Below are positions 4,701 to 37,791 of a stretch of DNA of 64,000 nt, in pieces (position 1 is the stretch's first letter; every line of letters begins with the position of its first letter). Source of the stretch: Candidatus Omnitrophota bacterium (GTDB lineage Bacteria; Omnitrophota; Gorgyraeia; Gygaellales; Profunditerraquicolaceae). The stretch spans positions 192,365 to 256,364 of the forward strand of contig JACQXK010000001.1 of assembly GCA_016208765.1 (NCBI GenBank). The letters run 5' to 3'. Under the pieces are notes generated by a model. The model did not search any database. It had not been told where the DNA came from and was given only the letters and a program-made list of their open reading frames with translations. A program made the position numbers and the translations under genes.

Positions 4701-4804
4701 TATGAGCAAGCAAGAAGATAAGAAAAAAGTATTTCTTCCGCTTTGGGCTAACGGATGGTCTAAATACCGCGTGATGATTTTGGGGATTTTAATGAGGATG
4801 AATA

Positions 4805-5521
4805 ATGAGGGCTAAAATGGTTATGGAAAAAATTATTTTTGCCTGGAGCGGCGGTAAAGATAGCGCCATGGCGCTTTATGAATTGAAAAAGAACAGGGAT
4901 TATGAAATATCAGCATTGCTTACTACGATAACAGAAGATTACAGCAGGATAAGCATGCACGGCGTCCGGGAAATTCTTCTTGAGCAACAGGCAGATTCTT
5001 TAGGTCTGCCTTTGGAGAAAATCTATATTACAAAAAAATCATCTAATGAAGAGTATGAAACTAAGATGAGGGATACGTTGATCCGTTATCAAAGTAACGG
5101 TGTTTTCTCTGTAGCTTTCGGTGATATTTTTCTTGAAGACTTAAAGAAATATCGCGAGGGCAATTTGTTAAAAATAGGCATGAAAGGCATTTTTCCTGTC
5201 TGGAAAAGAAATTCTTTTGAGCTCGCTAATACATTTATTGATTTAGGTTTTAAAGCGGTTATTACTTGTATTGATTCAAAAGTTCTTGATAAGGCTTTTG
5301 CCGGCAGGAATTTTGATAAGCAATTTTTATCAGAACTTCCTCCCAATGTTGACCCCTGCGGAGAGAATGGGGAATTTCATTCATTTGTGTACGAGGGCCC
5401 AATATTTTCAAAGCGAATATTATATGAAAAGGGTGAGGTTGTTTTAAGAGATAACCGGTATTATTTCTGTGATTTGATGCCAGTTGAGAATAAATTGGCT
5501 GTTGGTGCAAACTTGCCCTGA
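4805..5521 (+). CDS. PP-loop ATP pyrophosphatase of the Dph6 / MJ0570-like (diphthine-ammonia-ligase-like) family.
   Basis: N-terminus …KIIFAWSGGKDSAMALYEL contains the SGGKDS PP-loop. Its size (about 235 aa) fits the MJ0570 family. The true start may be Met-5 or Met-7. Confidence 0.65.
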   Translation: MRAKMVMEKIIFAWSGGKDSAMALYELKKNRDYEISALLTTITEDYSRISMHGVREILLEQQADSLGLPLEKIYITKKSSNEEYETKMRDTLIRYQSNGVFSVAFGDIFLEDLKKYREGNLLKIGMKGIFPVWKRNSFELANTFIDLGFKAVITCIDSKVLDKAFAGRNFDKQFLSELPPNVDPCGENGEFHSFVYEGPIFSKRILYEKGEVVLRDNRYYFCDLMPVENKLAVGANLP

Positions 5522-5673
5522 GCCTGCCTAAGATGCGGGGGGACATAATACTTAATTAGAAATAAGTACTGTCTCCGGAATTCCTTGCGTCTATTGACCG
5601 TTGGTGCAAGTACAACGTGATGATTTTGGGGATATTGGAGCGGACAAATACTTTGGAATGAAGGGGTTAAGCT

Positions 5674-6672
5674 ATGAAAAATAAGATTACTGAAATACCG
5701 GTAAGGGGTGAAATTGCCATTTATCAGACTAAAGACAAGAAAGTCCAGCTGGAAGTTAAGCTGGAGCAGGAAATGGTTTGGCTTTCACAAGAGCAGATAG
5801 CGAATCTTTTCAAAACTGAACGAAGCGTTATTACTAAGCATCTCGGCAATATCTTCTGTTCCAATGAATTAGGAGAGAAAAGCAATGTGCATTTTTTGCA
5901 CATTCCCTTTTCGGATAAACCGGTAAAATTTTACAATCTTGATGTGATAATTTCAGTTGGGTACAGGGTTAATTCGTCTCGTGCTACACAGTTTCGTATC
6001 TGGGCTACAAATGTCCTGAAGCGGCATTTGATTGATGGTTATACCATTAATGAGAAACGCTTGAAACAGCAGACCCAAAAACTTGAAGCTTTACAGAAAG
6101 CAGTAAAGCTAATAAGCAGTATGAAGGATCGCAAGCAGCTTGAATATAAGGAAGCCATGGGGCTGCTTGAAGTAATCAGCGATTATAGCTACGCACTTGG
6201 GCTTTTAGATGATTATGATTATAAGCGGCTAAAGATAACCAAAACTTCAAAAGAAGAAAAGTTTATTTTAAGCTACGAATTGGCAATAGAAGCTGTAAAT
6301 AAGCTCAAAGACAGAATTGGTAGTTCAGATCTTTTTGGCACAGAGCGTGATAAATCATTTAAGAGTTCGGTATCTTCAATCTATCAAACGTTTGACAGGA
6401 AAGATTTATATCCAAGCATTGAAGAGAAGGCAGCTAATTTGCTTTATTTCATTGTTAAAAATCATTCTTTTGTTGATGGGAACAAACGAATCGCTGCTTC
6501 AATATTTTTGTGGTTCTTAGAGAATAATGGTATTCTGTATAAAGAAGACGGCTCAAAGCGCATCGCCGATAATGCATTAGTCGCTTTGACTCTGATGATT
6601 GCAGAAAGTAAGCCCAGTGAGCGAGATATTATCGTTACGCTGGTTGTGAATTTGATAAACAGGAATAATTAA
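5674..6672 (+). CDS. RhuM-family protein with a C-terminal Doc-type Fic domain.
   Basis: The N-terminal region matches the RhuM virulence-protein family (…VISVGYRVNSSRATQFRIWATNVLKRHLIDGY…). The C-terminus has HSFVDGNKRIAA, i.e. the Doc-type HxFx(D/N)(A/G)NKR motif rather than the AMPylating GNGR motif. Confidence 0.75.
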   Translation: MKNKITEIPVRGEIAIYQTKDKKVQLEVKLEQEMVWLSQEQIANLFKTERSVITKHLGNIFCSNELGEKSNVHFLHIPFSDKPVKFYNLDVIISVGYRVNSSRATQFRIWATNVLKRHLIDGYTINEKRLKQQTQKLEALQKAVKLISSMKDRKQLEYKEAMGLLEVISDYSYALGLLDDYDYKRLKITKTSKEEKFILSYELAIEAVNKLKDRIGSSDLFGTERDKSFKSSVSSIYQTFDRKDLYPSIEEKAANLLYFIVKNHSFVDGNKRIAASIFLWFLENNGILYKEDGSKRIADNALVALTLMIAESKPSERDIIVTLVVNLINRNN

Positions 6673-6821
6673 AAACAAGTTTTATTAAGGTTATGAGGGA
6701 TAGAATTTTTAATTAGACATAAGTATTGTTTCCCCGGAATTATCAATGCGTTACCATACAAAAATAATTATATTTGTTCCGTAACTTTAATAATTACAGG
6801 TAGTTTAGGAAAGCGTCATAT

Positions 6822-7964
6822 ATGCTGAAAACAGGTTTTTTATTGGGTGCTGGATTTTCTAAATATGGAGGAATGCCACTATCTTGTGATTTTGTTATAC
6901 AAGCCCAAAACATACTGGATAATAGGCTTGAAAGATCATATATACCTTCGCGTGAGCCTAAAAACTTGCAGAGTCTTGTTAGATTTAAAGATTTCGTTTC
7001 AGATGAGAAAGGAAGAGAGATTAACCATATTGAAGAAATCATTAAGTTGTCTGATCAATACCGGCTTACTAAAGATTGGGACAATATTGATAAAGAAGTT
7101 AGAGATGCAATTTATGAGATATTGATTGCAGCGCCTTTTATCATGTATTTAAAAGATAAAAATGAGTTATATAAAATGTTTGATATTTATTTAAGATTTT
7201 TGTTAATTGTTGCAGATTCCGAAGCTATGATTGCAACATTGAATTATGATCCTCTCCTGGAGCTTTTGTTACACACAGCAGCAATGTCAATAACACCGAA
7301 TAGCCAGCTATTTCATAAATTCGCTGAAATTGTTAGTTTTAATTATGGAATTGGAGATTTTTCATACCGACCTTTATGGGGTTCTTCTTCTAATATAGAT
7401 AGAGTAGATATATTATATTTTAAATTGCATGGAGCTACTAATTGGGAAGGTTGTGATCAACACGGATTAACAGAGGTTTGCGATCCACTAAAAACTAGGG
7501 CAATTGGGCGCTGTAGAGAGTGCAACATGCCAGCAAAACCATTTATTATTTATCCAGTTGAGGAAAAGAAATTAAATAGTCAGTTATCAGCATTGTGGGA
7601 TACCGCTTTTGGAGCATTAATGCAAGTGGAACAGATTGTTATAATTGGATGCCGATTCAATGAAACAGACAAAGATATATTTAAAAATGTTAACGAATTA
7701 ATTAGTAACAATAAAAGACTTGTAATTGTTGATCCGCAAGGCAGGCAAATTAAAGAAAGAATTGCCAAGCTAAATGAAAATGTTGTATACATCGATAATG
7801 GGAATGGCGAAGGAGCGGTATTTGAAGATATTTTCTGTGATGGTAAAACAGTAGCAAACGAAAATTTTCAAGAAATCACTAACTTAAGATTACGTAAAGA
7901 TGTGCAATATTTTCGAAACGAACAACCTTCTATGCCTTTTTTTGAAGAACCAGTCGCAACATGA
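6822..7964 (+). CDS. Standalone SIR2-like (SIR2_2/PF13289-type) domain protein; candidate NADase defence effector.
   Basis: N-terminal 'FLLGAGFS' glycine-rich motif typical of the SIR2_2 family, with a downstream 'YFKLHGATNW' histidine motif. 380 aa with no other recognisable domain. Confidence 0.65.
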   Translation: MLKTGFLLGAGFSKYGGMPLSCDFVIQAQNILDNRLERSYIPSREPKNLQSLVRFKDFVSDEKGREINHIEEIIKLSDQYRLTKDWDNIDKEVRDAIYEILIAAPFIMYLKDKNELYKMFDIYLRFLLIVADSEAMIATLNYDPLLELLLHTAAMSITPNSQLFHKFAEIVSFNYGIGDFSYRPLWGSSSNIDRVDILYFKLHGATNWEGCDQHGLTEVCDPLKTRAIGRCRECNMPAKPFIIYPVEEKKLNSQLSALWDTAFGALMQVEQIVIIGCRFNETDKDIFKNVNELISNNKRLVIVDPQGRQIKERIAKLNENVVYIDNGNGEGAVFEDIFCDGKTVANENFQEITNLRLRKDVQYFRNEQPSMPFFEEPVAT

Positions 7965-8203
7965 GCAGTTATCTTAATTGTATTGGTTAGATTGACCAGA
8001 CGGATATGTAGAGTTAGAGGTTTGTTAGTTATTAGATAATAATAAGTTATGAAAAATAAATATAGTATATACATGCGTACCTTTGGATGGCCGTTGGTTA
8101 CAGTGGCTAGGGATGGCACTGGATGTGTTAAAGAGGGTAAATGGCTTGGAGTGAAAGGGTTGCGGGAAAACAAGTCTGAAAACGAAAATCTTATTAATGT
8201 TGT

Positions 8204-8209
8204 ATAATG
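8204..8209 (+). promoter_or_regulatory. Extended -10 element (TGtTATAAT) upstream of the giant NTPase gene, followed by a (GTAAT)x3 micro-repeat.
   Basis: TG at 8201-8202 and TATAAT at 8204-8209; gtaatgtaatgtaatg lies immediately downstream. Assigned by pattern only. Confidence 0.35.
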
Positions 8210-8248: not shown

Positions 8249-11200
8249 TTGATAGCTATGCAAGAAGTAAATTGGAACAACTTTAAAGCAAAGTTTAACG
8301 GTAAAGAGCAAAAATCTTTCGAGTGGTTTTGCTATCTCTTGTTTTGTAAAGAATTCAAGAAGAACACCGGAATATCCAGGTATAAAAACCAAGCAGGGAT
8401 AGAAGCCGAGCCTATTGAACATAATGGTCAAATGATAGGGTTTCAGGTGAAATTCTATGAAACAAGGATTAGTGAGAATAAAGACGACATAAAAAAGTCT
8501 ATTGAAACGGCAAAGAGAAAGAATGGCAACCTTAACAAAATCATATTTTATATAAATCAGGAATTCTCAGAAAGTAGCAAAAAAGATAAGAAAGACCCCG
8601 CATACAAAATCGACATAGAAAATTATGCTAAGTTTCTTGGCGTGGAAATAGATTGGAGAAGCAGAAGCTTTTTTGACTCTTCATTTGTCTGTCAGGACAA
8701 TGCCGTAATAGCACAACACTTTTTTGACTTAGGCAAGAGCGCGATTGATTTCTTAAATGAGTTAACTCAGCATACCGAAGCTATCCTAGCGGCAATAAAT
8801 TCAAAAATAAACCTCAGAAATAATGAAATAAAAATAGATACGGCACAGAATATAAAAGTGCTACAAGATGTTCTGAATACTTCTCCCATGGCTATTTTAA
8901 GTGGAGAGGCAGGGGTAGGAAAAACCGCTCTCATCAAAGATTTTTATGACTCAAGCAAAGACAAGGCTCCTTTTTACATCTTTAAAGCTGCCGAATTCTG
9001 CATACCCAACATAAATCAACTTTTCGCCAATTACGGATCATTTACCCTGTCAGATTTCATGAGAGAACACCAAGATTTCCAAGAAAAATACATAGTAATC
9101 GATTCTGCTGAAAAGTTATCTGACATTGAATATAAGGAAGTTTTTCAGGAATTTTTATCCACCCTGCAAATTAACAAATGGAAAGTCATATTTACAACAA
9201 GACATAGCTACTTGGACGATTTAAGATTTCAGTTTATTGAGGTTTACCATGTCCGGTGTCAGCCAGTAAATATCGAAAATCTTACCTCGGCACAACTTGT
9301 CGAGATTTCAAAAAAATATGGTTTTGATCTGCCAAGGAATGACAGGTTGCTTGAGCTTTTGCGAACACCTTTCTATTTAAATGAATATCTACAAAATTAT
9401 GATAGTTTAGGAAACGCAATAAGTTTTTCTGATTTTAAAAATTTGTTGTGGAACAAGCAGATATCCAAAACTTCATATCAGAAGGATAACATACATATAA
9501 AACGGGAAAAATGCTTCCTGGAGATTGCTCATAAGAGGGCTGCTGAGGGCAGCTTTTTTGTAAAGGCTGATGGGTGTGATGATGAAGTTTTACGGGCTCT
9601 TGAGAACGATGAAATTATAAAATATAACTCCAATGCGGGCGGTTACTTTATTACACATGACATTTATGAAGAGTGGGCATTGGATAACATAATTGAAAGA
9701 ACGTTTTTGAATTCAAAAGATTACAGGGATTTCTTAAGGGGGATAGGAAGTTCTTTGCCAGTTCGTCGAGCTTTTCGGAATTGGCTCTCAGAAAAACTAT
9801 ATAATAATGGAAATGAAGTAAAAGCATTTATTGAATTTGCAATCAATGATGATACGATTGAGAGCTATTGGAAGGACGAAATCTACGTATCAATCTTGCT
9901 ATCCGATTACGCAGAGGTCTTTTTTGACATATTCAAAGACAAGCTTTTAGAAAATAACCAAACTCTCCTGGTGAAAATTATTTTTTTGCTGAGAATCGGT
10001 TGTAAAGAGATTGATGAAGACTTGCTTAATATATTTGGTATTCAAAAAACGGCGTGGAGCGCATTGAAAACTATCTTCACGAAACCAAAAGGCCGTGGAT
10101 GGAAATGCACCATCAATTTTATACATGAGCATAAAGGCGCATTGGGATTACAAAGAATGAATATAATCCTCCCCATGCTTGATGATTGGAATAACAAAAA
10201 TAAAGGGGGCGAAACTACAAAGCAAGCGAGCCAGATAGCGTTATATTATTATAACGAACTCACAAAACAACAATATTATCATATCTCTGACCGCAAAGAG
10301 GGGCAATTAATCAGAGTCATTTTGCAAGGCTCATCAGAAATTAAGGATGAGTTGAAAACTATCTTAGATGAAGTTATCTCTAACAAAGCGGTTGATTACA
10401 GGGATAGGTACTACGTTCTTATTAAGCCAATACTAACATCACTTACGGATTCCTTCGAGGTGGTTAAAGCTCTGCCGAATTATGTAATAAGATTAGCAGA
10501 TATTTTTTGGTTCCAAAATCCCAATGAATTAGATGAGGATTATAGATATTCAAGAAGAATGGACATGGAGGATTACTTTTGTATTTCATCAAGGCATAAC
10601 GACTTTTTACCAGCAAGTGCATTCCAAACACCTATATTCCAGCTTTTAAAGATATCTCCCCAAGAGACAACGGACTTTATTTTATCGTTTACCAACAAGA
10701 CGGTTGAATGCTATGCGAAATCTAAGCTTGATGGTGAAATAGAACAGGTAGACGTTTTTGTCGATAATAATAAAGCGATAAAGCAATATATAAGCAACAG
10801 GCTTTGGTGCATGTACCGTGGAACCCAAGTTTCTCCATACCTTCTTGAGTCTATACATATGGCTCTCGAAAAATGGCTTCTGGACGTCGCCAAATCAGCA
10901 TCAAAAGAGGTTATAGAAAGCCGGTGCCTGTATCTTATAAAAAACTCTAAATCTGCTTCAATAACCGCAGTTGTTTCAAGCGTGGTTTTAGCTCAACCGT
11001 CAAAGCTTTTCAATGTTGCAAAAATACTTTTCCAAACAAAACAATTCTTCCTTTACGACACGGCAAGGATGATGCTTGACCAATCACACAAAGGTCAATT
11101 ATTAGGGTTGAGAAATCTCTTTCCTCGTAACTACGATAATGAAATCTATGAAGATGAAAGAATAAAAGCTTGTGATGATAGCCACAGAAAATACGCATTA

Positions 11201-13009
11201 GAGCATTTAGCTCTTAATTATCAGTTATTCAGGACAGAAGAAGAAAGAGAGGATGAGGTTAAAGATAGACAAGAAATCATATGGGCCATATTCGATAAAT
11301 ATTATGCAGAGCTCCCAGACAAATCAACAGAAACGGAATCCGACAAGACATGGAAGCTATATTTGGCAAGAATGGATAGAAGAAAGATGAGTCCAGAAAT
11401 TGAGAAGACAGATGAAGGCACTTTCATTAAATTCAATCCCGAAATCGACGCCGATTTAAAAAAACATAGTGAAGATGCTCTGCAAGAAATTTCCGAGAAG
11501 ATGAAGTATACAGGTTTACGGCTATGGGCAGATAGCAGATTCAGAGGAGAAGAAGAGACCTACAAAAAATATCCTCAGTATGAAACCGAACCAAAACGTG
11601 TAATTACAGAAGCAAAGGAAATATTTGAAGGGCTAAAGACCACAAAAAGGGAAGAATTTTCCCTGTTTAACCGTTCAATACCCGCATATGCTTGCTCTGT
11701 TTTAATGCGTGATTTTTTTGGCAAACTTGATTCAGATGAAAAAGAATTCTGCAAAGAAGTAATTATTGGGTATGCAGCTATACCGTTAATGACAGAACAG
11801 TATATGTACCAGATATCCGATGGCACGGAAGCCGCAATTGCTCTTTTACCCAATCTTCTGGAGCATTTTCAAAAAGATAAGAAAGATATCAAAATGTTGT
11901 TGTTTAGATTGCTGCTCATCCCGTCCCGAGAAATATCAACATTTGTTGCAAGAGGCATTTTGCATAAGTTATGGAAAATCAGTTTTAATGATGCAAACTC
12001 TATGTTTCTAGGATATCTTTTGCTTTCACCCAAATATTATGCGCTTATCGATGAAATACGAGAAGAAAATTACAAAAGAAAAAATCACGGCGATTTAAGA
12101 ACACAGGTTTCTAAAGCATTTGAAGAAAAGTATAGAAAGGAACTTGAGAGGGTTAACAAGAACGGCATTTCTTATGATGAATTAGATGGCTTAGAAAAGA
12201 TAGATTTAGAAATTCTAAAATCGGCGTTTGAGTTATTGCCTTTGGAAACAACTGACAACGATCATAAGAAATTCTTGAGCGCAATCTTTCCCATTTTCGC
12301 AACGAAAATCTTACAGGATGATCGTGAGGACAGAATTGACTATACCCTAAGGCATAGATTCTTAGAAAAATTTGCATATTTTACCTTAAACCTCCCGAAA
12401 AAAGAAATAATGATATATTTGCGACCTTTTATCGATAATTTTCACAACTCAAGAGAAATGTCTGAATTCTTCCAAGAATTTATATTTGTAGAAGATAGGC
12501 TGTCCAAATATGACGAATTCTGGACAATATGGAATGCTTTTTATGAGAAGGTGGCAGATTTATGTAAGAGCAAGAGCAGTTATTATGCAAAAGAAGTCAT
12601 AAGTAGCTATCTCTTAGCAGGGATACCCTGGAATGAAAAAGCAAAAGAATGGCATACGCTAAAAGAACGAGAAAAGATATTCTATAAAAAGGTAGCTGAG
12701 GAAATGGGGCAGCACCCAGCGGTGTTGTATTCCATTTCCAAGGTTCTAAACGGCATCGGAAGCAATTTTATAGAAGACGGATTAACCTGGATAAGCTATA
12801 TCTTAGAAAACAACAAACAGCTAAGCTCGGAAGAATTAGAAACAAATACCATTTTTTACATAGAGACCTTTCTTCGACGATATATTCTAAATAATCGTCT
12901 ACATATTAGGAGGTCACTATTGATTAAGAAGCAACTTATCGTTGTTTTAAATTTCTTGATAGGAAGAGGTTCGATCGTAGGGTATTTATTACGAGATGAT
13001 ATTTTATAA
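8249..13009 (+). CDS. Giant STAND-like P-loop NTPase (1586 aa) with an N-terminal Mrr-like PD-(D/E)xK nuclease-fold domain and a long helical C-terminus; resembles the Avs (antiviral STAND) architecture.
   Basis: N-terminus FEWFCYLLFCKEF…GIEAEP…QMIGFQVKFYE follows the Mrr_cat pattern (FE.L…GID…I.QCK.Y). Walker A is [12 protein letters not shown] near aa 220 and Walker B is KYIVIDSAEKL near aa 280. More than 1200 aa of non-repetitive, helix-rich sequence follows. Confidence 0.6.
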   Translation: MIAMQEVNWNNFKAKFNGKEQKSFEWFCYLLFCKEFKKNTGISRYKNQAGIEAEPIEHNGQMIGFQVKFYETRISENKDDIKKSIETAKRKNGNLNKIIFYINQEFSESSKKDKKDPAYKIDIENYAKFLGVEIDWRSRSFFDSSFVCQDNAVIAQHFFDLGKSAIDFLNELTQHTEAILAAINSKINLRNNEIKIDTAQNIKVLQDVLNTSPMAILSGEAGVGKTALIKDFYDSSKDKAPFYIFKAAEFCIPNINQLFANYGSFTLSDFMREHQDFQEKYIVIDSAEKLSDIEYKEVFQEFLSTLQINKWKVIFTTRHSYLDDLRFQFIEVYHVRCQPVNIENLTSAQLVEISKKYGFDLPRNDRLLELLRTPFYLNEYLQNYDSLGNAISFSDFKNLLWNKQISKTSYQKDNIHIKREKCFLEIAHKRAAEGSFFVKADGCDDEVLRALENDEIIKYNSNAGGYFITHDIYEEWALDNIIERTFLNSKDYRDFLRGIGSSLPVRRAFRNWLSEKLYNNGNEVKAFIEFAINDDTIESYWKDEIYVSILLSDYAEVFFDIFKDKLLENNQTLLVKIIFLLRIGCKEIDEDLLNIFGIQKTAWSALKTIFTKPKGRGWKCTINFIHEHKGALGLQRMNIILPMLDDWNNKNKGGETTKQASQIALYYYNELTKQQYYHISDRKEGQLIRVILQGSSEIKDELKTILDEVISNKAVDYRDRYYVLIKPILTSLTDSFEVVKALPNYVIRLADIFWFQNPNELDEDYRYSRRMDMEDYFCISSRHNDFLPASAFQTPIFQLLKISPQETTDFILSFTNKTVECYAKSKLDGEIEQVDVFVDNNKAIKQYISNRLWCMYRGTQVSPYLLESIHMALEKWLLDVAKSASKEVIESRCLYLIKNSKSASITAVVSSVVLAQPSKLFNVAKILFQTKQFFLYDTARMMLDQSHKGQLLGLRNLFPRNYDNEIYEDERIKACDDSHRKYALEHLALNYQLFRTEEEREDEVKDRQEIIWAIFDKYYAELPDKSTETESDKTWKLYLARMDRRKMSPEIEKTDEGTFIKFNPEIDADLKKHSEDALQEISEKMKYTGLRLWADSRFRGEEETYKKYPQYETEPKRVITEAKEIFEGLKTTKREEFSLFNRSIPAYACSVLMRDFFGKLDSDEKEFCKEVIIGYAAIPLMTEQYMYQISDGTEAAIALLPNLLEHFQKDKKDIKMLLFRLLLIPSREISTFVARGILHKLWKISFNDANSMFLGYLLLSPKYYALIDEIREENYKRKNHGDLRTQVSKAFEEKYRKELERVNKNGISYDELDGLEKIDLEILKSAFELLPLETTDNDHKKFLSAIFPIFATKILQDDREDRIDYTLRHRFLEKFAYFTLNLPKKEIMIYLRPFIDNFHNSREMSEFFQEFIFVEDRLSKYDEFWTIWNAFYEKVADLCKSKSSYYAKEVISSYLLAGIPWNEKAKEWHTLKEREKIFYKKVAEEMGQHPAVLYSISKVLNGIGSNFIEDGLTWISYILENNKQLSSEELETNTIFYIETFLRRYILNNRLHIRRSLLIKKQLIVVLNFLIGRGSIVGYLLRDDIL

Positions 13010-13032: not shown

Positions 13033-13695
13033 ATGCCGTATAAATTATCTACTGAACAAATTCGTGAATTAGTTAACCAGCCAGAAACCGGAATGGGTTA
13101 TCAGTATGTCGAAGCCTCTATGAGTAATTCTTCTATCTTGAAAGGAGTTGTGCTTAATTCAGAAGTTTTTATCCCTGAAGAAAAAATCGAAAAGATTATG
13201 GGTAAGCGATTTATAACCTACTCAGCAGTTCTTAATGAAGCAGAAAGTCCCGGATACATTAGAAAAATCAACGTCATTGGGCGAGATCGATTGCATCTCG
13301 GAGAAACAAAGTATTTTGCAAAATCTGCTGGAGTTCCTGCTTCGCAGGCCGTTATTTCTTTAACAGAAAAAAATCAAATTTTTAAAAGGTTCTCGCCTTA
13401 TAGAAATGATCATCGTATTAATGAAGATGGTAGTTTAAAATTAGGTGCATATGCCACTACAGAAGCCGATGCACGTAATGTTAGAACAGGAATAGATGCA
13501 ACAAATAGGTATGCATTACTGAGTGATGAGCCGGCAATATATGTTTTTACCATTCAACCGCCTGAAAAAACTTCTGTTCGCGTTGGAACAGTTGAACCTG
13601 CAAATGGCAAGCCTGGTGGCGGTGTTGAGGTTTTATTTGAAAACGGCTCTCCCAAAAACACTGTGACTGGACCCAACATAATTCCAGCAAATTAA
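13033..13695 (+). CDS. Hypothetical protein (220 aa) with an N-terminal 'PETGMGYQ' domain.
   Basis: Starts 24 bp after the giant NTPase stop, with GAGGAGG as RBS. Its N-terminal roughly 55 aa are paralogous to the next ORF. No recognised family. Confidence 0.6.
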   Translation: MPYKLSTEQIRELVNQPETGMGYQYVEASMSNSSILKGVVLNSEVFIPEEKIEKIMGKRFITYSAVLNEAESPGYIRKINVIGRDRLHLGETKYFAKSAGVPASQAVISLTEKNQIFKRFSPYRNDHRINEDGSLKLGAYATTEADARNVRTGIDATNRYALLSDEPAIYVFTIQPPEKTSVRVGTVEPANGKPGGGVEVLFENGSPKNTVTGPNIIPAN

Positions 13696-13914
13696 ATGAA
13701 ACTAAAATTAAATAAATACTGGACGGAGCACCTTCTTAAATACCCTGAAACAGGGATGGGGTATCAACGGGTTGATGTCATATTGAAATCTGGCCAGGTA
13801 ATCAAAAATATTGTTGTTTTGAACGCCGAAGACTTGGTGCTTTCTGACGAATATAAAGATTTAAGATTAGATGAAATTAAGGATTTACATGTTCTGATTA
13901 AAGGGAAAAGATAA
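13696..13914 (+). CDS. Hypothetical small protein (72 aa); a standalone paralog of the N-terminal 'PETGMGYQ' domain of the upstream gene.
   Basis: Starts 1 nt after the upstream stop. The alignment KYPETGMGYQRVDVILKSGQVIKNIVVLNAEDLV versus NQPETGMGYQYVEASMSNSSILKGVVLNSEVFI shows clear homology. Confidence 0.55.
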   Translation: MKLKLNKYWTEHLLKYPETGMGYQRVDVILKSGQVIKNIVVLNAEDLVLSDEYKDLRLDEIKDLHVLIKGKR

Positions 13915-14043
13915 AAATCGGCATAAGTTCTCAAGCGGAGGTGTTTATGAACGGTTTTAAAAAAGGATCTGGTTCTTTGTGATAAGGATGGCAAAGTTAT
14001 CAAAGTTTATCCATATGGCAGTGAAGAGCAGCTTAGATATGAA

Positions 14044-14361
14044 ATGGTTCTGGAAATTCTATTTGAGGCAGACAAGACAGCTCTAGAGAAACTCATAGAG
14101 AAAAGAGAGCATAAAGAACAGGTAATAGATAGTCAGATAGAAGAATGCGATAAGAAGGTTTTTCATAAATGTACCAAACGATCAGCCAAAAGATACAATA
14201 TGACCCAAACAGCAAGAATTTTAGGAGTTCATCGCGAGACATTATATTACTGGATCAAGAAAGGTTGGCTTAAGCCGAAGCGAGACTACAGGAATTATCC
14301 GGTTTTTACAGTTTTAGACATAGAAGAGCTGATAAAGTGGAAAGATACAATAAAATGTTGA
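14044..14361 (+). CDS. Small HTH DNA-binding protein (Xis/AlpA/MerR-like HTH_17) with a coiled N-terminal half.
   Basis: C-terminal MTQTARILGVHRETLYYWIKKGWLKPKR is a typical excisionase/MerR-type helix-turn-helix. No integrase gene is nearby. Confidence 0.6.
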   Translation: MVLEILFEADKTALEKLIEKREHKEQVIDSQIEECDKKVFHKCTKRSAKRYNMTQTARILGVHRETLYYWIKKGWLKPKRDYRNYPVFTVLDIEELIKWKDTIKC

Positions 14362-14500: not shown

Positions 14501-15724
14501 ATGAAACAAGAAGTTACATCAAAAAAAGTGTTCATTCGCACGCTGGGCTGTCAAATGAACGTCCGGGATTCGGAGGTAATTGGAGGGTTGCTTGCGAGAG
14601 CAGGGTATGAGATTACCGACGATGAACAGCAGGCGGATATTGTGATTTTTAATACCTGTTCTGTGCGTCAGATGGCTGAAGATAGGGTATGGAGCGCGGT
14701 GGGAAATGCTGTAAATAGAGAAAAGCATAGGGACAGTCCCCAAAAAGCGGGGACAGTCCCTATAATTGGTATTACAGGCTGTATGGCAAATAATTACCGG
14801 GAGGCAATTTTTGAGAAAGCGCCGGCTGTTGATTTTGTGGTCGGCACTGCGGATATTGGAAAGCTACCGGAAATCATAAAAGAAATCCAAAAACATAAAG
14901 GCAGCCTCAATGAAAAGAAGATTTATGAAACAGACGCAGAATTTCGCGAGGATGAAATTTATCACACTGGATTCAGGCTTGATAAAGAACATGCGTTTGT
15001 GGTAATCTCGGAGGGATGTGAGAATTTTTGTTCTTATTGTGTGGTGCCTTATGTGCGGGGAAAGTTGCGCTCGCGTGATCCTGAGGATATTTTAAAAGAA
15101 ATAAAAGCAGATGTTGATGCCGGGATTTCTAAGATTACTCTTTTGGGCCAGAATGTGAATGCGTATCATTGGGTAGATAAAAACAGGGACAGTCCCCAAA
15201 AACCGGGGACAGTCCCTGTTTTTACTTTTGATTTTGTAAAGCTCCTGACAATGGTTAATAGAATAAGCGGTTTAAAAGAGTTTACTTTTGTTACCTCACA
15301 CCCCAAGGATACATCAATAGAATTATTTAAGGCAATGGCTGAGTTGGATAAATTAAGAAAATACATGCATCTTCCGGTGCAGTCTGGTTCGGATAGGATC
15401 TTAAAAATGATGAATCGCAGGTATACCAGGGAAAATTATTTAAATTTAGCAAAGAGTTATCGTGAGATTGTCAGGGGTGGTGAGCTTACTACTGATATTA
15501 TTGTGGGTTTTCCCGGTGAGACAGAAAAAGATTTTCAGGATACCTTTGATTTGGTAAAAGAAGCGGAGTTTAATGCTGGTTTTATTTTTAAATATTCACC
15601 TCGGCCGCATACTGAGGCTTTAAAATTGCCTGATGATGTGTCAAGAGAGGAAAAAGAAAGGCGCCACGCCTTAATTTTAGAACTGCAGAAGAAAATATCA
15701 AAGAAGCTAAGAAAGAAAATATGA
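14501..15724 (+). CDS. miaB: tRNA-2-methylthio-N6-dimethylallyladenosine synthase (radical SAM methylthiotransferase). It carries two in-frame 11-aa palindromic-element insertions.
   Basis: VFIRTLGCQMN MTTase N-domain, CxxxCxxC radical-SAM cluster (CENFCSYCVVP) and a C-terminal TRAM region. Insertions 'RDSPQKAGTVP' and 'RDSPQKPGTVP' correspond to the DNA elements at 14729-14761 and 15185-15217. Confidence 0.9.
   Translation: MKQEVTSKKVFIRTLGCQMNVRDSEVIGGLLARAGYEITDDEQQADIVIFNTCSVRQMAEDRVWSAVGNAVNREKHRDSPQKAGTVPIIGITGCMANNYREAIFEKAPAVDFVVGTADIGKLPEIIKEIQKHKGSLNEKKIYETDAEFREDEIYHTGFRLDKEHAFVVISEGCENFCSYCVVPYVRGKLRSRDPEDILKEIKADVDAGISKITLLGQNVNAYHWVDKNRDSPQKPGTVPVFTFDFVKLLTMVNRISGLKEFTFVTSHPKDTSIELFKAMAELDKLRKYMHLPVQSGSDRILKMMNRRYTRENYLNLAKSYREIVRGGELTTDIIVGFPGETEKDFQDTFDLVKEAEFNAGFIFKYSPRPHTEALKLPDDVSREEKERRHALILELQKKISKKLRKKI
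14729..14761. repeat. 33-bp palindromic element AGGGACAGTCCCC-AAAAAGC-GGGGACAGTCCCT, inserted in-frame in miaB.
   Basis: Two copies of the near-palindrome GGGACAGTCCC separated by 7 nt. The same element recurs at 15185-15217 and, in reverse orientation, at 32625-32653 and 32828-32856. Confidence 0.85.
15185..15217. repeat. Second copy of the 33-bp palindromic element (AGGGACAGTCCCC-AAAAACC-GGGGACAGTCCCT), in-frame in miaB.
   Basis: Differs from the first copy by one spacer nucleotide. It is flanked by AAAAC/GTTTT, which extends the palindrome. Confidence 0.85.
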
Positions 15725-31746: not shown

Positions 31747-34700
31747 ATGACTAAAAGACTCTCTAAACTAATTGCCTTACTTTTAAGCTTTCTACTGCTA
31801 ATAGAGCAAGCAGGCTTTGCAGCTGGTGGTGCCATAGACCTATCAAGCCAATTCTCTAAGCTTGCCTCAGGCATATCTACTACTCTATCATCTGCTACTA
31901 CAGCTACCTTTCGTCCCATACACCTAAGATACCTGGAGTATCTACCTAAAGATAACAGCTTTAAGCTGCTCTTAGATAAAGGTAGCGTAGATACGTCATT
32001 GCGAGGCGCTTCACAGAGTAGGATAACGAAGCAATCTCAAAACCAGATTGCTTCGTCGCTCGTTTCGCTCGCTCCTCGCAATGACGATTTACACACCTTA
32101 CACCCCATATCGCAAGCTGAACTACAAGACCTCCAATCCACCACCCAAGACCTAATGAACTACTTCTACATAGGCCTCACACTACCTAATGATTCCTTCT
32201 GGGTTAACCTAAGACCTGCCCCGTTGATGACCGAAGGTCAATCTACGGGGACTGACTCACCCAACAACATCATAGACTCCTACCTATCTAAAACAGATAT
32301 AGGCAGAATTCTTCTTGAAGCTGATGTACAGCTAAAGAAAGACACCTCAAGCTACACTAACCCAGCTACTCCTATAGGAAAGCAATACTGGAATAAGCTC
32401 TACAAGAAAGCCTCTGATCTCTTTGGAACAGACCAGATTACTATCCCTACCCTAACAAGACCATGGATAGTTCCAGGAGAGATAATCATAAGAGAAAGTC
32501 TGTCACCTGTTGCCAGTGTTGGACAGGAGACAGGTGACAGGAGACAGGCGACACATCCCTCTGCCTACATCTACAAAGCTACCCTTAAAGTAATGCTTGA
32601 AGAAGACTACTTGAAGGGACTGTCCCCGAAGGGGACTGTCCCTGGTTCAACAGACTACTCCTTCACTGATCCGCGCCTTAAAGAACTCAACTCCTACTCT
32701 ACAGAACTAATCAAAGAACTAATCATCCCCAAACTGACTAAAGAGGTAAACTCCTCTAAAAGATACTCTAAGCTAAGACAGGTATACTACTCTCTAATAC
32801 TTGCTCAATGGTTTAAGTCAAGGCAGAAGGGACTGTCCCCGAAGGGAACTGTCCCTGATTTGATTGACTCTAAAAATCTCTCTAACCTAACCTCTAAAAC
32901 TACTTGGGATAAAGCTACCTACTTCAACCAATACCAACAATCCTTCACTAAAGGAGAATACAATACCAAGGAAACAGTCTATACACCTTCTGGACAGGTG
33001 ATCAGGAGTTATATGAGTGGAGGGATTACCTTGATGCAAGGGAGTTTTCCTATTCAGCAAGGGGCTACTTTTGAAAGCCAAGCCGGAAGCCCGATTAAAG
33101 TAGTCCCTGCCAACAGCCCTATTCCAGAAACTCTAAAAAATATCGCAGTAGAAATTAGTTGTTCGGTTTTAAATTCAGACAATTCTACAGTACAGTTAAT
33201 TCCAGAAGTATCATCTGAGAAAATGTATACGCCAGCCAGTTCTTCAGTAGTAAATCACGAAACTAGCGTAGGGCAACTTGTGCTTTTAGAAAAAAGAGAA
33301 TTCCGCTGGCTTCCGGAAGATATTACTAAAGTTGAACAACTGATTCCTGAATTGAAGAAATTTAGCCGAGGCGCAGAGGGTGTTGTGAAGCAGGAGGTAG
33401 CAATCTCACTTTTAGCGGGGCTGATTAGAAAGGAAAACTCAAAATCAATCGCAGCTTTTGAGGATTTAGCTGGACAGATAAAAGAATTTATTGCTCCGAA
33501 ACAAAGGCTTAGCTTAAAGTATGTATCGCTGAAGATTATAAATGCCGCAGCGCAAAATGGAAATCCGGTGGCATTAAAGCTAATCAAGGAATCAACAAGT
33601 GATTTAATAAAAACAATTATTGCGATTGAGCAAAAAGGAGATGTTTATGAAGGGCTTCAAGATATGGTGTTGGATGAGATGCTGGCGTTGTTGATTAGAG
33701 GCGAAAATAACGCATTATTAGAAATAGCAACAGCTTTATCCCAAGGATTAAGGGAAAATCTTCCATCAAGCCAGGATATAAATGAGATCAAGGGAATTCG
33801 TCAGCTCTTTAAACAAGCTCTCAATATGTCAGGTCTTAAGGTAATATTTAAGCTCCGTGAGATCGCAGCAATCCGCGCAACCAATAGTCTCATTCAGGCA
33901 TTGGAGCTTGATACGGAAGACATAATTTACGGTTACTGCGAAGAGCTAAATAAGAAGATGGTGCAGGAAGCAATTGAAAAAGGAGAGCTTCCTCCCGGCT
34001 ATTCTACTAAAAAATATACAGATTCGGCGGATCAGCATCAAAAGGATATCGTAGTAATATTTAATGATAATCAGTCTTTAGGCAGATCAGCCGACAAATT
34101 ACAATTACCTTATTACATTTTTAAATACGGGCTGCCAGAACCATTACCGCAGGAAATTGTAGCTAGAATGCGGCAAGAGATGAATATAGGAAAGCGCAAA
34201 GTGATTGTCGCCGGGTCAGTTGATCGGCAAGAAATAGGCGTTTTAATGGCTGCTTATAATAGTTTATACCGCAATCTCCCTGTAGAACAGCGTCCGTTAT
34301 TAGTTTTGGCTCCTCGGGATATAATCGATTTAGATGATGTGGATTTAAGTCAGCCAGATGCGCCTCTTGTGCTTAAGCAGGGAGAATTGTTAAAATCTTA
34401 TGCCTTAGCCGATGTTTGTATTGTAGGTAGCGATCGTAATATTTTAGAGCCATCAAGCCAGAGAAAATTGGTGTTGTATTTCTCGGGTTATTGGCGCAGC
34501 AATCAGCAAGCGAAAGATATGCTAGTTTCTTCGGGCGGAGCAATAGAGTTTAATCAAGATAATCTCTCTCTAGCGGTAAATAATCCGCAGATAACGCAAG
34601 AATTGGGAGAGAAAGGTTTTAAGATAGTGCAAGAATTCAAAAATAAGATTATTCCACAAACAACGGATATCGCGGCAATCTTCGGATTGTCTTTGTTGAT

Positions 34701-37700
34701 TAAGAAAGTAGCACAGCAACGCGCCGCCTCATCGGTAGTGGAGAAAAAAACAGAAACGTCATCTGGCTTTCTCCAAGGGTCTTCGTCTTCGGCTGTCGCA
34801 ATAAGTGATTTCTACGCAGAACAGTTAAAAACAAAATTTTATATCTCACCGCACCAGCAGGAAGCAATAGATATTTTGGAAAAATACAAAGCGTATTTTA
34901 GCAGTGGCATGAATATTCAGCAGAAGGATGGAGATTGCTTTAGCGGTGGAGTTGTCAATTACGCTCAAGCTTTGATAGGAATTATAGCGGGTTTTATTGT
35001 TGTCAGCCAAGATAAAAAAAGCTTAGTTTTTCTTCAAGCACAAGGCCTTGTTAATCTTCGTGGCATGGTTAACGCTTTAGAGTTTTTGGAAAAAAACAAA
35101 ACTTCCTATGAAAAAAGGGGAATGATTAGGGATGAGGTTGGGGCAATAGGCATAGGCTTTTCATATCAAGAGGCAAAAGCTGGGATAATATCCGGGGTTG
35201 TGATTGTCTCGCTTAAAGGGGATGAATTATTGGTCAAGCAGGGTAAAAACAGGTCAGATGTCCCTTCTTATGTTGTTGTTGATATTTGGGGCCGGCCGAT
35301 GGTTGTTACTATCGGGTTTGCCGATAAATTAATGTCTGCTGCTGTGGCAGGGCGTAGGGCTAAAATTGAAAAAAATCCATCAGAGCGAGAAAGGCTTGCC
35401 TTGGAACAGTCTCAATATCTAAGCGCAGTAATTGATGGTGTTTCTATTGCTCACGTTGGAGATTATTTTGAGGCGAATGGAAATCTTTTCATAGTTAATA
35501 AGGTATATATAGAAACTGATGAAAATGGCAGGTTAGTATCTTTTAATTATTTTGGTGAACAAGCCCCTCTTCAGCAAGGACAATTGAGTTTTGCGTCTCG
35601 GCGGTTGCAATTAAATCATTATTATCAGCCATTATCTCAAAAAGAGGTAGAGGATTTTCTTAAAGCCAGGGAGAATGAAAAACAACAAGCGGATAGAAGG
35701 AATTTACAGGTTAATGTGGAGTCATTAGAAAAGAAAGTTAATAATGGGCTTAACTGGGGAACAGAAGGCAACGTAGCCAAACTCTTGTCTGAATGTGAAA
35801 AAGCAGGGTTTGAAGATTTGCTTGGGCGTATGAGAAATGTCTGCGCAGGGTTTGTTGATATTCGGCGCATCTATGATACATACGGTAAAGATATTAATAA
35901 AATATCTGTTTTATTAGAGCAACTTGCTTTTAGTCGGGCCGAGAAATTAGTTGAAGTTTTATCTCTACGTTCTCAACTGGAAGAAATTATAAAACAAATT
36001 GAGCAAGATAATGGGAATAAAGCAGCTTTAGAATTCTGGGACAAGGAAGCGAAACATTTGCTTGGAAAAGTTAATAAGTTGTTGGGCCGTTTAGAGCAGG
36101 ATGCTTCTTGGCGTAGAAGGCAAGTTGCGCGCAGGCAAGTTCCGATGAAGCGTTTGGGTTCTCTGTATCCCGGAGAAAGAAGGCAGGAAGCAAAAGAGCT
36201 TTTTTGCGATTCGGAAAATCCCGTAACTATTATTATTGGTAGTGGAACGATATTGGAAATAGGTAAAGATAGTTTCGGTTTTTTTGTGGTTCGTGCTAAT
36301 GAGGTAGACAGAGAATTTGGGAGAAGGGTATATATCAGTGAGCAAGGCATAAAGATAGGCAGTGACAGGCAAACGGGTTATTTGCGTATAGGGGATGTAG
36401 TTTCTACTGCTCATAAGGATTCCTTGGTTTCTAGGGAACATCTGGAGATTAGTGTTATTGACCAGCAGACTATTAAATTAGCTGATAAAGGTTCTCTTAA
36501 TGGCACAAGTTATAGAGTTTTTGAGGGGGAGCTGGTTAATCCTGTTTATGAACGTTCGGAGGTTGAAGAATTAGCCTTGGCTGTGGCGGCAAGGTTAGGC
36601 GGCGGGGGATTGTACTTTGATTCAGACAAAAGGAAAATAGGGGAAAACAGGGTTTTTGAAGCCCGCGACAGTCTTGAGGTGATTTTTGGACAGCGGGAAG
36701 GAAATAAAGAAGAAGCATCAGAAAATCTTTTTAAATTCTTCCGCAGATATGGGATTATTTTTATCTATGAAAATAATTTTGCTTTATTAGGCAAAGTTGA
36801 GAGCGTTATTCCTGTTTCCTACCGGTTTTTCAAAAGGGTATTATTGATAAAGCCGTGGTATCAAAAGGGAATGGAAAATATATTGGGATTTTATTCAGGG
36901 CGAATCCAATCACTAACCGAAGGATACGCAATCTTAGGCCAGCGCGGAGAACAGGAAACATCAGAAGAAAATCGTCTTACTGGAGTTCACGAGGCTAATC
37001 ATGGGTTTGATTCAAGCGAAATAATTGAACTTAACAGAATTGGCAAAAGAGTTGCGGTTGATGCCACAATGTTTGAATATACAGCTTATTTGGCGATGTT
37101 GTTGGTAGAGGATGAAAAGGCTGCTTATCATGCCTATATGGAAATGTATGAAGTTTATCAGCAGTATAATTTTAAAGGCAACTATCCAAATCCGAATATT
37201 GCCGCACAATGCAGAATTATCGGCGAGTACCAAGAACAAGGTCATCACGGAGACTCTTTAACTAATGAAACTATTAGGAAGATGGCACAACAATTAAGAA
37301 ATAACTATTATAATGAATTTTTTGGTTTTGTTCCTTCTTATCCTGATGTTTGGCAGGCATTTTCAAAAGCTCAAAACGCCTCCTCGGCTGTGACAGGCGA
37401 CTCCTCGACTAAGCTCGGAGTAAATAGTCGACTGGAGACTGGTGACACTAAAGGCGGTATTGACTTCCGTAGCCTCCCCATCGTCACCCAAGCTGTCTCT
37501 AACTTAGGCTTAACTACTATGAATCAGGAGCTAAGGAATAGATTAATGAATTTTAATCTAAGCTCTGAGCTAAATGAAATAGAGAAACTCACTAATGCAG
37601 GTATTACCCCCTCAACCCAAAGAATTAAAGAATACATTCAAGCAAGCTCCATCTCTATTAATTCCCCAGAAGATACCCAGAAACTACTCTCCTGTATTGC

Positions 37701-37791
37701 AGATATCCTCAGAAAACAGGAAGAAGAATGCTGCCCTACAGATCCTACCTTAAAAGATATTCTTGTAGTATTGGAATCAGGGATAAGTTAA
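31747..37791 (+). CDS. Giant secreted multidomain protein (2014 aa) with a GT30/Kdo-transferase-like region and a C-terminal-proximal FHA domain. It also carries two in-frame palindromic-element insertions.
   Basis: Signal peptide MTKRLSKLIALLLSFLLLIEQAGFA. Region …RKVIVAGSVDRQEIGVLMAAYN…LLVLAPRD…ADVCIVGSDRNILEPSSQ…SSGGAIEF resembles the KdtA C-terminal fold. FHA-like region …YLRIGD…SREHLEI…DKGSLNGT. The insertion peptides are GLSPKGTVP, twice. Confidence 0.6.
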   Translation: MTKRLSKLIALLLSFLLLIEQAGFAAGGAIDLSSQFSKLASGISTTLSSATTATFRPIHLRYLEYLPKDNSFKLLLDKGSVDTSLRGASQSRITKQSQNQIASSLVSLAPRNDDLHTLHPISQAELQDLQSTTQDLMNYFYIGLTLPNDSFWVNLRPAPLMTEGQSTGTDSPNNIIDSYLSKTDIGRILLEADVQLKKDTSSYTNPATPIGKQYWNKLYKKASDLFGTDQITIPTLTRPWIVPGEIIIRESLSPVASVGQETGDRRQATHPSAYIYKATLKVMLEEDYLKGLSPKGTVPGSTDYSFTDPRLKELNSYSTELIKELIIPKLTKEVNSSKRYSKLRQVYYSLILAQWFKSRQKGLSPKGTVPDLIDSKNLSNLTSKTTWDKATYFNQYQQSFTKGEYNTKETVYTPSGQVIRSYMSGGITLMQGSFPIQQGATFESQAGSPIKVVPANSPIPETLKNIAVEISCSVLNSDNSTVQLIPEVSSEKMYTPASSSVVNHETSVGQLVLLEKREFRWLPEDITKVEQLIPELKKFSRGAEGVVKQEVAISLLAGLIRKENSKSIAAFEDLAGQIKEFIAPKQRLSLKYVSLKIINAAAQNGNPVALKLIKESTSDLIKTIIAIEQKGDVYEGLQDMVLDEMLALLIRGENNALLEIATALSQGLRENLPSSQDINEIKGIRQLFKQALNMSGLKVIFKLREIAAIRATNSLIQALELDTEDIIYGYCEELNKKMVQEAIEKGELPPGYSTKKYTDSADQHQKDIVVIFNDNQSLGRSADKLQLPYYIFKYGLPEPLPQEIVARMRQEMNIGKRKVIVAGSVDRQEIGVLMAAYNSLYRNLPVEQRPLLVLAPRDIIDLDDVDLSQPDAPLVLKQGELLKSYALADVCIVGSDRNILEPSSQRKLVLYFSGYWRSNQQAKDMLVSSGGAIEFNQDNLSLAVNNPQITQELGEKGFKIVQEFKNKIIPQTTDIAAIFGLSLLIKKVAQQRAASSVVEKKTETSSGFLQGSSSSAVAISDFYAEQLKTKFYISPHQQEAIDILEKYKAYFSSGMNIQQKDGDCFSGGVVNYAQALIGIIAGFIVVSQDKKSLVFLQAQGLVNLRGMVNALEFLEKNKTSYEKRGMIRDEVGAIGIGFSYQEAKAGIISGVVIVSLKGDELLVKQGKNRSDVPSYVVVDIWGRPMVVTIGFADKLMSAAVAGRRAKIEKNPSERERLALEQSQYLSAVIDGVSIAHVGDYFEANGNLFIVNKVYIETDENGRLVSFNYFGEQAPLQQGQLSFASRRLQLNHYYQPLSQKEVEDFLKARENEKQQADRRNLQVNVESLEKKVNNGLNWGTEGNVAKLLSECEKAGFEDLLGRMRNVCAGFVDIRRIYDTYGKDINKISVLLEQLAFSRAEKLVEVLSLRSQLEEIIKQIEQDNGNKAALEFWDKEAKHLLGKVNKLLGRLEQDASWRRRQVARRQVPMKRLGSLYPGERRQEAKELFCDSENPVTIIIGSGTILEIGKDSFGFFVVRANEVDREFGRRVYISEQGIKIGSDRQTGYLRIGDVVSTAHKDSLVSREHLEISVIDQQTIKLADKGSLNGTSYRVFEGELVNPVYERSEVEELALAVAARLGGGGLYFDSDKRKIGENRVFEARDSLEVIFGQREGNKEEASENLFKFFRRYGIIFIYENNFALLGKVESVIPVSYRFFKRVLLIKPWYQKGMENILGFYSGRIQSLTEGYAILGQRGEQETSEENRLTGVHEANHGFDSSEIIELNRIGKRVAVDATMFEYTAYLAMLLVEDEKAAYHAYMEMYEVYQQYNFKGNYPNPNIAAQCRIIGEYQEQGHHGDSLTNETIRKMAQQLRNNYYNEFFGFVPSYPDVWQAFSKAQNASSAVTGDSSTKLGVNSRLETGDTKGGIDFRSLPIVTQAVSNLGLTTMNQELRNRLMNFNLSSELNEIEKLTNAGITPSTQRIKEYIQASSISINSPEDTQKLLSCIADILRKQEEECCPTDPTLKDILVVLESGIS
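32625..32653. repeat. Palindromic element in reverse orientation (AGGGACTGTCCCC-GAA-GGGGACTGTCCCT), in-frame in the giant gene.
   Basis: Reverse complement of the miaB element core. It encodes GLSPKGTVP. Confidence 0.85.
32828..32856. repeat. Second reverse-orientation palindromic element (AGGGACTGTCCCC-GAAG-GGAACTGTCCCT), in-frame in the giant gene.
   Basis: Same core with one substitution. It encodes GLSPKGTVP. Confidence 0.85.

Follow-up and report, generated by a model that had tools for sequence, protein, structure and literature searches.

Introduction

Doc, the classic toxin of plasmid addiction, belongs to a two-gene system, Phd/Doc, in which the antitoxin gene is adjacent to the toxin gene, usually upstream, and co-transcribed with it. 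P1 Doc phosphorylates Thr382 of the translation factor EF-Tu with ATP (Castro-Roa 2013 and Cruz 2014, as cited in PMC6529018). COG3943-Doc fusions that have no upstream antitoxin were described by Fico & Mahillon (2006; PMC1626090), and frequent RhuM-DOC fusions within restriction-modification and defence neighbourhoods were noted later, with a toxin role proposed (Anantharaman et al. 2013; PMC3710099). The only studied relative of this kind is BifA (SeseC_01334) of Streptococcus equi subsp. zooepidemicus, which is encoded on a horizontally acquired island, combines an N-terminal RhuM with a C-terminal Fic domain and requires its catalytic His (H247) for activity; it has been described as a virulence factor that is released, enters endothelial cells and increases the phosphorylation of moesin, with direct phosphorylation not shown (PMC6529018). 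PADLOC lists the family as a single-gene defence candidate, PDC-S23. Our literature searches found no paper naming PDC-S23 and no published anti-phage test of a RhuM-Doc protein.

Here, we describe a RhuM-Doc gene in a 64,000-nt stretch of an Omnitrophota contig (the window, i.e., the whole stretch of DNA analysed) and compare it with these systems.

Results

The RhuM-Doc gene and its domains

The gene and the parts of its product map to the following positions of the window.

5674..6672, + strand: RhuM-Doc fusion gene, 332 aa, ATG start at 5674, TAA stop included
5713..5967, + strand: RhuM N-terminal core (residues 14-98), predicted helix-turn-helix and beta-hairpin 'wing', putative DNA-binding domain
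5977..6219, + strand: long helices joining the RhuM core to the Doc domain (residues 102-182), from AF2 models and alignments A1 and A4
6262..6663, + strand: Doc-type Fic domain (residues ~197-330)
6463..6489, + strand: catalytic motif H264-S-F-V-D-G-N-K-R272, read from the sequence

A Shine-Dalgarno-like GAAGGGG at 5660-5666 lies 8 nt before the ATG, and the product is 100% identical to an nr entry named 'MAG: virulence protein RhuM/Fic/DOC family protein [Candidatus Omnitrophica bacterium]'. Pfam Virulence_RhuM (PF13310) matches residues 82-172 (E 1.7e-22, 80.4 bits against a gathering cut-off of 33.7) and Pfam Fic (PF02661) residues 200-282 (E 5.7e-12, 46.8 bits against 24). The protein also matches NCBIfam TIGR01550 DOC_P1 (41.7 bits, cut-off 38.65) and the PHROGs 'Doc-like toxin' (3.4e-17); the PADLOC PDC-S05 (RhuM) models span residues ~10-213, and the PDC-S23 HMM PDLC04965 (3e-132) aligns positions 5-326 of its 327 with residues 12-331 of the 332. 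The ORF is therefore real and its family matches are far beyond chance, with both the RhuM and the Fic scores above curated cut-offs. A preliminary description of this DNA, drawn from the letters alone, had taken the protein for a RhuM N-terminal module fused to a Fic/Doc domain and had proposed alignment against Doc and Fic HMMs as a check; the alignment bears that architecture out.

The same description had assigned the motif to the Doc variant of the Fic fold rather than to the GNGR form, and here too it was right. Residues 264-275 read HSFVDGNKRIAA. The motif of AMPylating Fic proteins, HxFx(D/E)GNGRxxR, is absent; in its place, Lys replaces the second Gly of GNGR and the second Arg is missing, position 275 being Ala. 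This is the pattern of the Doc subfamily, HxFx(D/N)(A/G)NKR with no Arg three residues after the motif Arg, and it sits in the all-helical Fic fold that surrounds the motif loop. Across 81 full-length family members with identity down to 35% (alignment A1), the motif is nearly invariant (H264 in 78, F266 in 76, D268 in 81, G269 in 81, N270 in 78, K271 in 81 and R272 in 80), and position 275 is Ala, Ser, Thr or Gly, and Arg in none of the 81. Searched against PDB sequences, the family profile matches Doc proteins at 1.8e-9 (9vzc) and 3.3e-3 (3k33), and AMPylating Fic enzymes, including SoFic and FICD, more weakly, at 0.012-0.76. Because K271 is invariant, position 275 is never Arg and the profile favours Doc structures, a predicted catalytic domain of the Doc type, rather than of the AMPylase type, is well supported.

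Fic-fold proteins catalyse several different modifications, and activity is not readable from sequence with certainty; the domain might thus transfer AMP or another nucleotide-derived group, or be a catalytically dead binding module. We consider this unlikely, given that the Doc catalytic positions H, D, N, K and R are at least 95% conserved, with the Lys invariant and the Arg of AMPylation never present, and that the closest matches in both fold and sequence are Doc proteins. By extrapolation from P1 Doc, the domain would be a kinase and EF-Tu its target.

For the N-terminal half, no solved structure represents the RhuM module. In the AF2 model, the core (residues ~14-98) is compact, with pLDDT of 87-98 across residues 41-110, and is followed by a very long helix (102-152) and a second helix (158-182), with conservation of 90% or more at Y171, L178 and D182 (alignments A1 and A4); an extended, confidently placed linker (183-200) then runs into the Doc domain. 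With a pTM of 0.60, the model leaves it uncertain how the RhuM and Doc halves are placed relative to each other. One relative has an HTH_36 match at the equivalent N-terminal helices, and stand-alone homologues of the N-terminal module occur in Streptococcus phage satellites, annotated as 'putative DNA-binding protein', and in Wolbachia phage WO. From these sequence and model features, a DNA-binding role may reasonably, if weakly, be suggested for the RhuM module, and the helical module 102-182 could act as a regulator in cis.

Distribution of the family

The RhuM/Fic/DOC family is large, comprising at least 894 clusters at 50% identity (E <=1e-30) from many phyla, and its hosts include free-living and environmental lineages of Omnitrophota, Patescibacteria, Cyanobacteria and Zetaproteobacteria. 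The same PGAP product name appears in 116 plasmid records. In phage records, mostly the N-terminal RhuM module alone is found, and a phage origin of the RhuM-Doc gene was discarded, with the full fusion in only 1 of 80 such records. Since the family is already named and its lack of an antitoxin was pointed out in 2006, the gene described here is not new: it is an ordinary member of a very common orphan-toxin fusion family that is already known.

For comparison of genomic context, 80 RhuM-Doc loci were fetched from species-representative genomes across many phyla, including Omnitrophota, Bacteroidota, Verrucomicrobiota, Planctomycetota, Pseudomonadota, Bacillota, Actinomycetota, Cyanobacteria and Patescibacteria; the gene was callable in 78 of them. 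Immediate neighbours of at least 100 aa (n = 110) are heterogeneous and include only 3-4 type I restriction-modification subunits and 2 integrases (raw counts), so that embedding in a type I restriction-modification system, considered as a general setting for the gene, holds for a minority only. Even between relatives at 72-95% amino acid identity, similarity in the flanking DNA ends a few bases outside the start and stop codons, and a PGAP-annotated copy on a Legionella plasmid begins 1 nt after a Tn3 transposase gene. The RhuM-Doc gene stands alone: it moves horizontally as a single-gene unit and has neither a conserved neighbour nor an antitoxin gene.

Decayed miaB 5' copies and other repeats

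An 18-mer, CGTGATGATTTTGGGGAT, is present without mismatch at both 4770 and 5616, and an nhmmer profile finds three copies of an element of ~110 nt in the window, all on the + strand.

4723-4830, + strand: miaB-5'-like copy 1, upstream of the PP-loop ATPase gene 4805-5521
5564-5678, + strand: miaB-5'-like copy 2, the 'leader', upstream of the RhuM-Doc gene (nhmmer E 2e-21)
8064-8170, + strand: miaB-5'-like copy 3, upstream of Avs4, within the intact small ORF 8049-8207

The true miaB gene lies at 14501-15724, and the N-terminus of MiaB reads MKQEVTSKKVFIRTLGCQMNVRDSEV. The translated copies, with the pattern ...(K)KVFIRTFG(W/C/stop)P(L/M)V..RDDF..., align with this N-terminus by tblastn and by DNA alignment; as judged from these alignments, the 'leader' at 5564-5678 duplicates, in degenerate form, the opening ~35-40 codons of miaB. 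The preliminary description had seen here a repeated leader element. The repetition stands, if modestly, with three copies; the element itself is a decayed miaB 5' copy and not a leader dedicated to RhuM-Doc. A relic frame of 27 codons runs through the leader from TTG 5601 to TAA 5684, overlapping the RhuM-Doc start codon. This frame is open in window copy 2 and in the related locus L094. Stop codons interrupt it in L085, L091 and the window copy at 4723-4830, a frameshift disrupts it in L002, and most RhuM-Doc loci lack it.

Copies of the miaB 5' end also precede unrelated genes, namely Avs4, a DUF2971 gene and the PP-loop ATPase gene, and 1-3 co-oriented copies are present in related Omnitrophota loci (L085, L091, L092, L094, L101, L102, L001/L086, L083 and L006). 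Many of the copies, in the window and in these related loci, carry in-frame stop codons; the sole fully open copy in the window is that in the intact small ORF 8049-8207, just upstream of Avs4, with a predicted product of 52 aa (MKNKYSIYMRTFGWPLVTVARDG...). In front of the Diphthami_syn_2/PP-loop ATPase gene at 4805-5521 (E 1.5e-39), the relic frame closes on a TAATG in which its stop overlaps the start of the gene; this gene may belong to the cargo and not to the core.

A real miaB lies downstream of RhuM-Doc in L006, L091, L092, L094 and L101, at distances from ~0.1 kb (L094) to ~6 kb (L006). In or beside the miaB-proximal regions of relatives, the cargo includes TIR genes (three cases), SoFic-type Fic genes (three), nucleotidyltransferase pairs (PADLOC PDC-M05; two) and a DUF2971 gene (one). 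The region upstream of miaB thus appears to be a cargo hotspot, populated by single-gene units each headed by a decayed miaB 5' copy, and no recombinase was identified for such accretion of miaB-proximal cassettes. This arrangement would explain why nothing Phd-like can lie upstream of RhuM-Doc, and it lends support to the island context. We judge the miaB 5' copies to be more interesting than the RhuM-Doc gene itself and to constitute a separate phenomenon; if cassette stacking is real, it would represent a mechanism of cassette accretion in Omnitrophota that has not been described previously.

A second element, a direct repeat of ~45 nt, flanks the RhuM-Doc gene.

5540..5583, + strand: left copy, with a hairpin of z -2.5, aligned to 6697-6742 with a score of 44
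6697..6742, + strand: right copy, from local and multiple alignment

In a multiple alignment with the 3' flank of L002, the same ~45-nt element follows the RhuM-Doc gene of that locus, which is 95% identical to the one in the window.

The window also contains a palindrome, GGGACAGTCCC(C/T), two copies of which, 7-8 nt apart, form a short element that lies in frame inside coding sequences (15 palindrome matches observed against 0.13 expected). The element occurs twice within miaB (14719-14761 and 15175-15217), where it reads RDSPQK(A/P)GTVP twice in MiaB, and twice within the ORF 31747-37791 (32613-32656 and 32826-32869); a similar sequence flanks the RhuM-Doc gene in L097. It recalls palindromic elements of the kind that invade genes, the Rickettsia RPEs among them.

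Search for an antitoxin or a built-in inhibitor

The arrangement of a two-gene Phd/Doc system, with an adjacent, co-transcribed antitoxin gene, was not found. No + strand ORF of at least 30 aa is present in the upstream spacer (5522-5673, 152 nt) or in the downstream spacer (6673-6821, 149 nt). All-against-all BLAST of the 347 small ORFs located within ~400 nt of the gene in the 78 loci yielded no recurrent family, the sole three-member cluster apparently consisting of fragments of the RhuM-Doc gene itself. An hhalign comparison of the family alignment with the P1 Phd sequence gave a probability of 0.4%. The preliminary description had stated that no Phd-like gene precedes RhuM-Doc, and both the empty upstream spacer and the 78 loci agree. 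With no adjacent ORF, no recurrent small ORF and no Phd-like segment by hhalign, the RhuM-Doc gene is therefore a stand-alone unit.

The conventional alternative is a type II toxin, the antitoxin of which was missed because it is encoded in the leader frame (5601-5684), in the ORF 6317-6520 or as an RNA. The first candidate draws on the frame being open here and in L094 and overlapping the RhuM-Doc start; its stops and frameshift in other copies, its descent from a decayed miaB 5' copy and its presence before unrelated genes led us to reject it. The second, which overlaps the RhuM-Doc gene in an alternative frame, gains some weight from close relatives, in 10 of 13 of which the +1 frame is open for 58-93 codons; it was rejected because the frame is closed in L088 and L089 and, among 66 diverse members, has a median open length of 48 codons and reaches at least 60 codons in only 24. 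As to an RNA antitoxin or structured leader, the search at the locus found no tandem repeats and no Rfam match at E <=1, and the leader fold has a z of -1.2, only the 5540-5583 hairpin attaining z -2.5 in this region. A sigma-70-type scan of 5522-5673 was also empty, and the leader was dismissed as a promoter as well. Taken with the lack of a recurrent small ORF, we consider a missed antitoxin very improbable.

An inhibitor built into the protein, as suggested in the preliminary description, would be the helix (S/T)xxxE(G/N), a feature of AMPylating Fic enzymes and not of Doc. The check for this helix was negative: the motif is absent from the RhuM-Doc protein, and the regular expression matches only 22 of 81 relatives, mostly as a 'TVQxEG' of variable position inside the RhuM module, i.e., it is not conserved across the family.

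Defence genes around RhuM-Doc

Downstream of the RhuM-Doc gene are two genes with matches, one of them weak, to defence families.

6822..7964, + strand: weak SIR2-like/AbiH-like cargo gene, 380 aa (SIR2_2 22.2 bits and AbiH 21.8 bits, both below cut-off)
8249..13009, + strand: Avs4, a STAND ATPase (PADLOC 2087 bits over the full length), annotated start TTG

The product of 6822-7964, with a PADLOC SIR2 match of 5.7e-7, is possibly a divergent SIR2-type defence effector, and the N-terminus of Avs4 shows a weak match to an Mrr-like nuclease. Over 6-13 kb, the G+C content is 33-37%, against 39-44% in the flanks. The defence-island setting that the preliminary description had sensed is thus corroborated by Avs4 and the weaker SIR2-like/AbiH-like gene close by. 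An obligatory partner among the neighbours was sought and rejected: none of the other RhuM-Doc loci fetched contains the SIR2-like, Avs4, PP-loop or 220-aa gene, and the SIR2-like gene, which has no homologue in them, is not a partner of RhuM-Doc.

Between Avs4 and miaB lie two ORFs with no family matches, of 220 aa (13033-13695) and 73 aa (13696-13917), and a gene for a 105-aa MerR/excisionase-like HTH protein (14044-14361), which is conserved upstream of miaB in L101. Homologues of the latter occur in L084, on which no miaB was detected, and in L093, where a fragment of 25 aa lies upstream of miaB.

In L002, the 95% identical RhuM-Doc gene is flanked by a DUF6788/NTP_transf_8 pair and by a SoFic-type gene with Fic_N plus Fic domains (L002 coordinates 8920-9910 and 11154-12293); two different Fic-fold genes therefore lie side by side there.

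The 'virulence protein' label of the family originates with Salmonella RhuM. Together with BifA, which shares the RhuM and Fic architecture and whose effects on endothelial cells depend on its catalytic His (PMC6529018), the label raises the prospect of a host-interaction effector that acts on proteins of a eukaryotic or other host cell and not on the translation of its producer. Against this, the family is spread over free-living and environmental lineages of many phyla, neither a signal peptide nor a secretion-system context is seen at the locus in the window, the gene resides among defence genes and, for BifA itself, its authors did not show direct phosphorylation. A virulence role is accordingly quite unlikely.

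A selfish role has more to recommend it: as a module for addiction or stabilisation, or else as a DNA-binding regulator carrying a Doc domain, the gene would help the cassette or island to persist and would have no part in phage defence. The history of Doc as an addiction toxin, the 116 plasmid records, the Tn3-borne copy and the movement of the gene as a single-gene unit would all fit, as would an N-terminus that resembles a DNA-binding domain. However, addiction requires an unstable antidote, none is encoded here, and a single polypeptide hardly gives post-segregational killing; co-location with Avs4, TIR and SoFic cargo suits defence better. We regard the selfish reading as rather unlikely.

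Discussion

The reading that we favour, with a chance somewhat better than even, is that RhuM-Doc is a cis-regulated effector kinase of the Doc type, carried as single-gene cargo in a defence hotspot and causing an arrest of the abortive-infection type. By analogy with P1 Doc, the C-terminal domain would be a protein kinase that uses ATP in an inverted orientation; once active, it would phosphorylate a translation factor (EF-Tu at Thr382 in the Doc paradigm), whereupon protein synthesis would stop. Because there is no trans-acting Phd, the RhuM and helical modules are the likely regulator or sensor in cis, keeping the kinase silent until a trigger arrives, most plausibly phage infection, which would lead to an abortive-infection-type growth arrest. 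In this chain, we infer the kinase, EF-Tu and phage-trigger steps and extrapolate the cis-inhibition. The preliminary description had offered an auto-inhibited or orphan toxin, or an abortive-infection-type effector, as possibilities, and these are plausible. The model is consistent with all the data and is the most likely of the readings considered; the evidence for a defence role is circumstantial and comprises the adjacency of Avs4 and the SIR2-like gene as well as the TIR, SoFic and nucleotidyltransferase cargo of relatives.

A bolder version of the model, which we put forward only tentatively and consider doubtful as a whole, is that the RhuM winged-helix/coiled-coil part senses a phage cue, DNA or protein, and thereby frees a Doc kinase that phosphorylates EF-Tu, with accretion of miaB-headed cassettes proceeding as a separate process. 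If true, it would provide the first Doc-type kinase shown in phage defence and explain an orphan-toxin puzzle that is 20 years old. Likewise, proof of the cis-regulated kinase would establish Doc-type phosphorylation of the translation machinery as a new effector chemistry for single-gene anti-phage systems. The gene by itself is of little consequence; the wider interest lies in the family, with its thousands of Doc-type toxin domains that lack antitoxins and are listed only as a defence candidate.

Compared with the described systems, RhuM-Doc is closest to its own family, PDC-S23, with which it shares the two-module architecture over the full length and from which it differs in nothing structural; what sets the gene in the window apart is its location, a miaB-proximal cargo site in Omnitrophota as opposed to the inside of a type I restriction-modification operon. 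BifA, compared by description only, is alike in architecture, but its host is an animal pathogen and not an environmental member of the Omnitrophota. Relative to P1 Doc, RhuM-Doc has ~196 additional N-terminal residues, made up of the RhuM module and the long helices, and, unlike P1 Phd/Doc, it has no phd gene and is chromosomal single-gene cargo rather than part of a two-gene operon. SoFic, the Fic protein of Shewanella oneidensis and a single-gene anti-phage system in PADLOC, is likewise a stand-alone Fic-fold effector in defence islands, and in three related loci the same miaB-proximal site is home to SoFic-type genes. SoFic is, however, an AMPylating enzyme that carries the GNGR motif and an inhibitory helix and begins with a Fic_N/DUF4172 domain, and the RhuM-Doc family profile matches SoFic structures only at E ~0.47.
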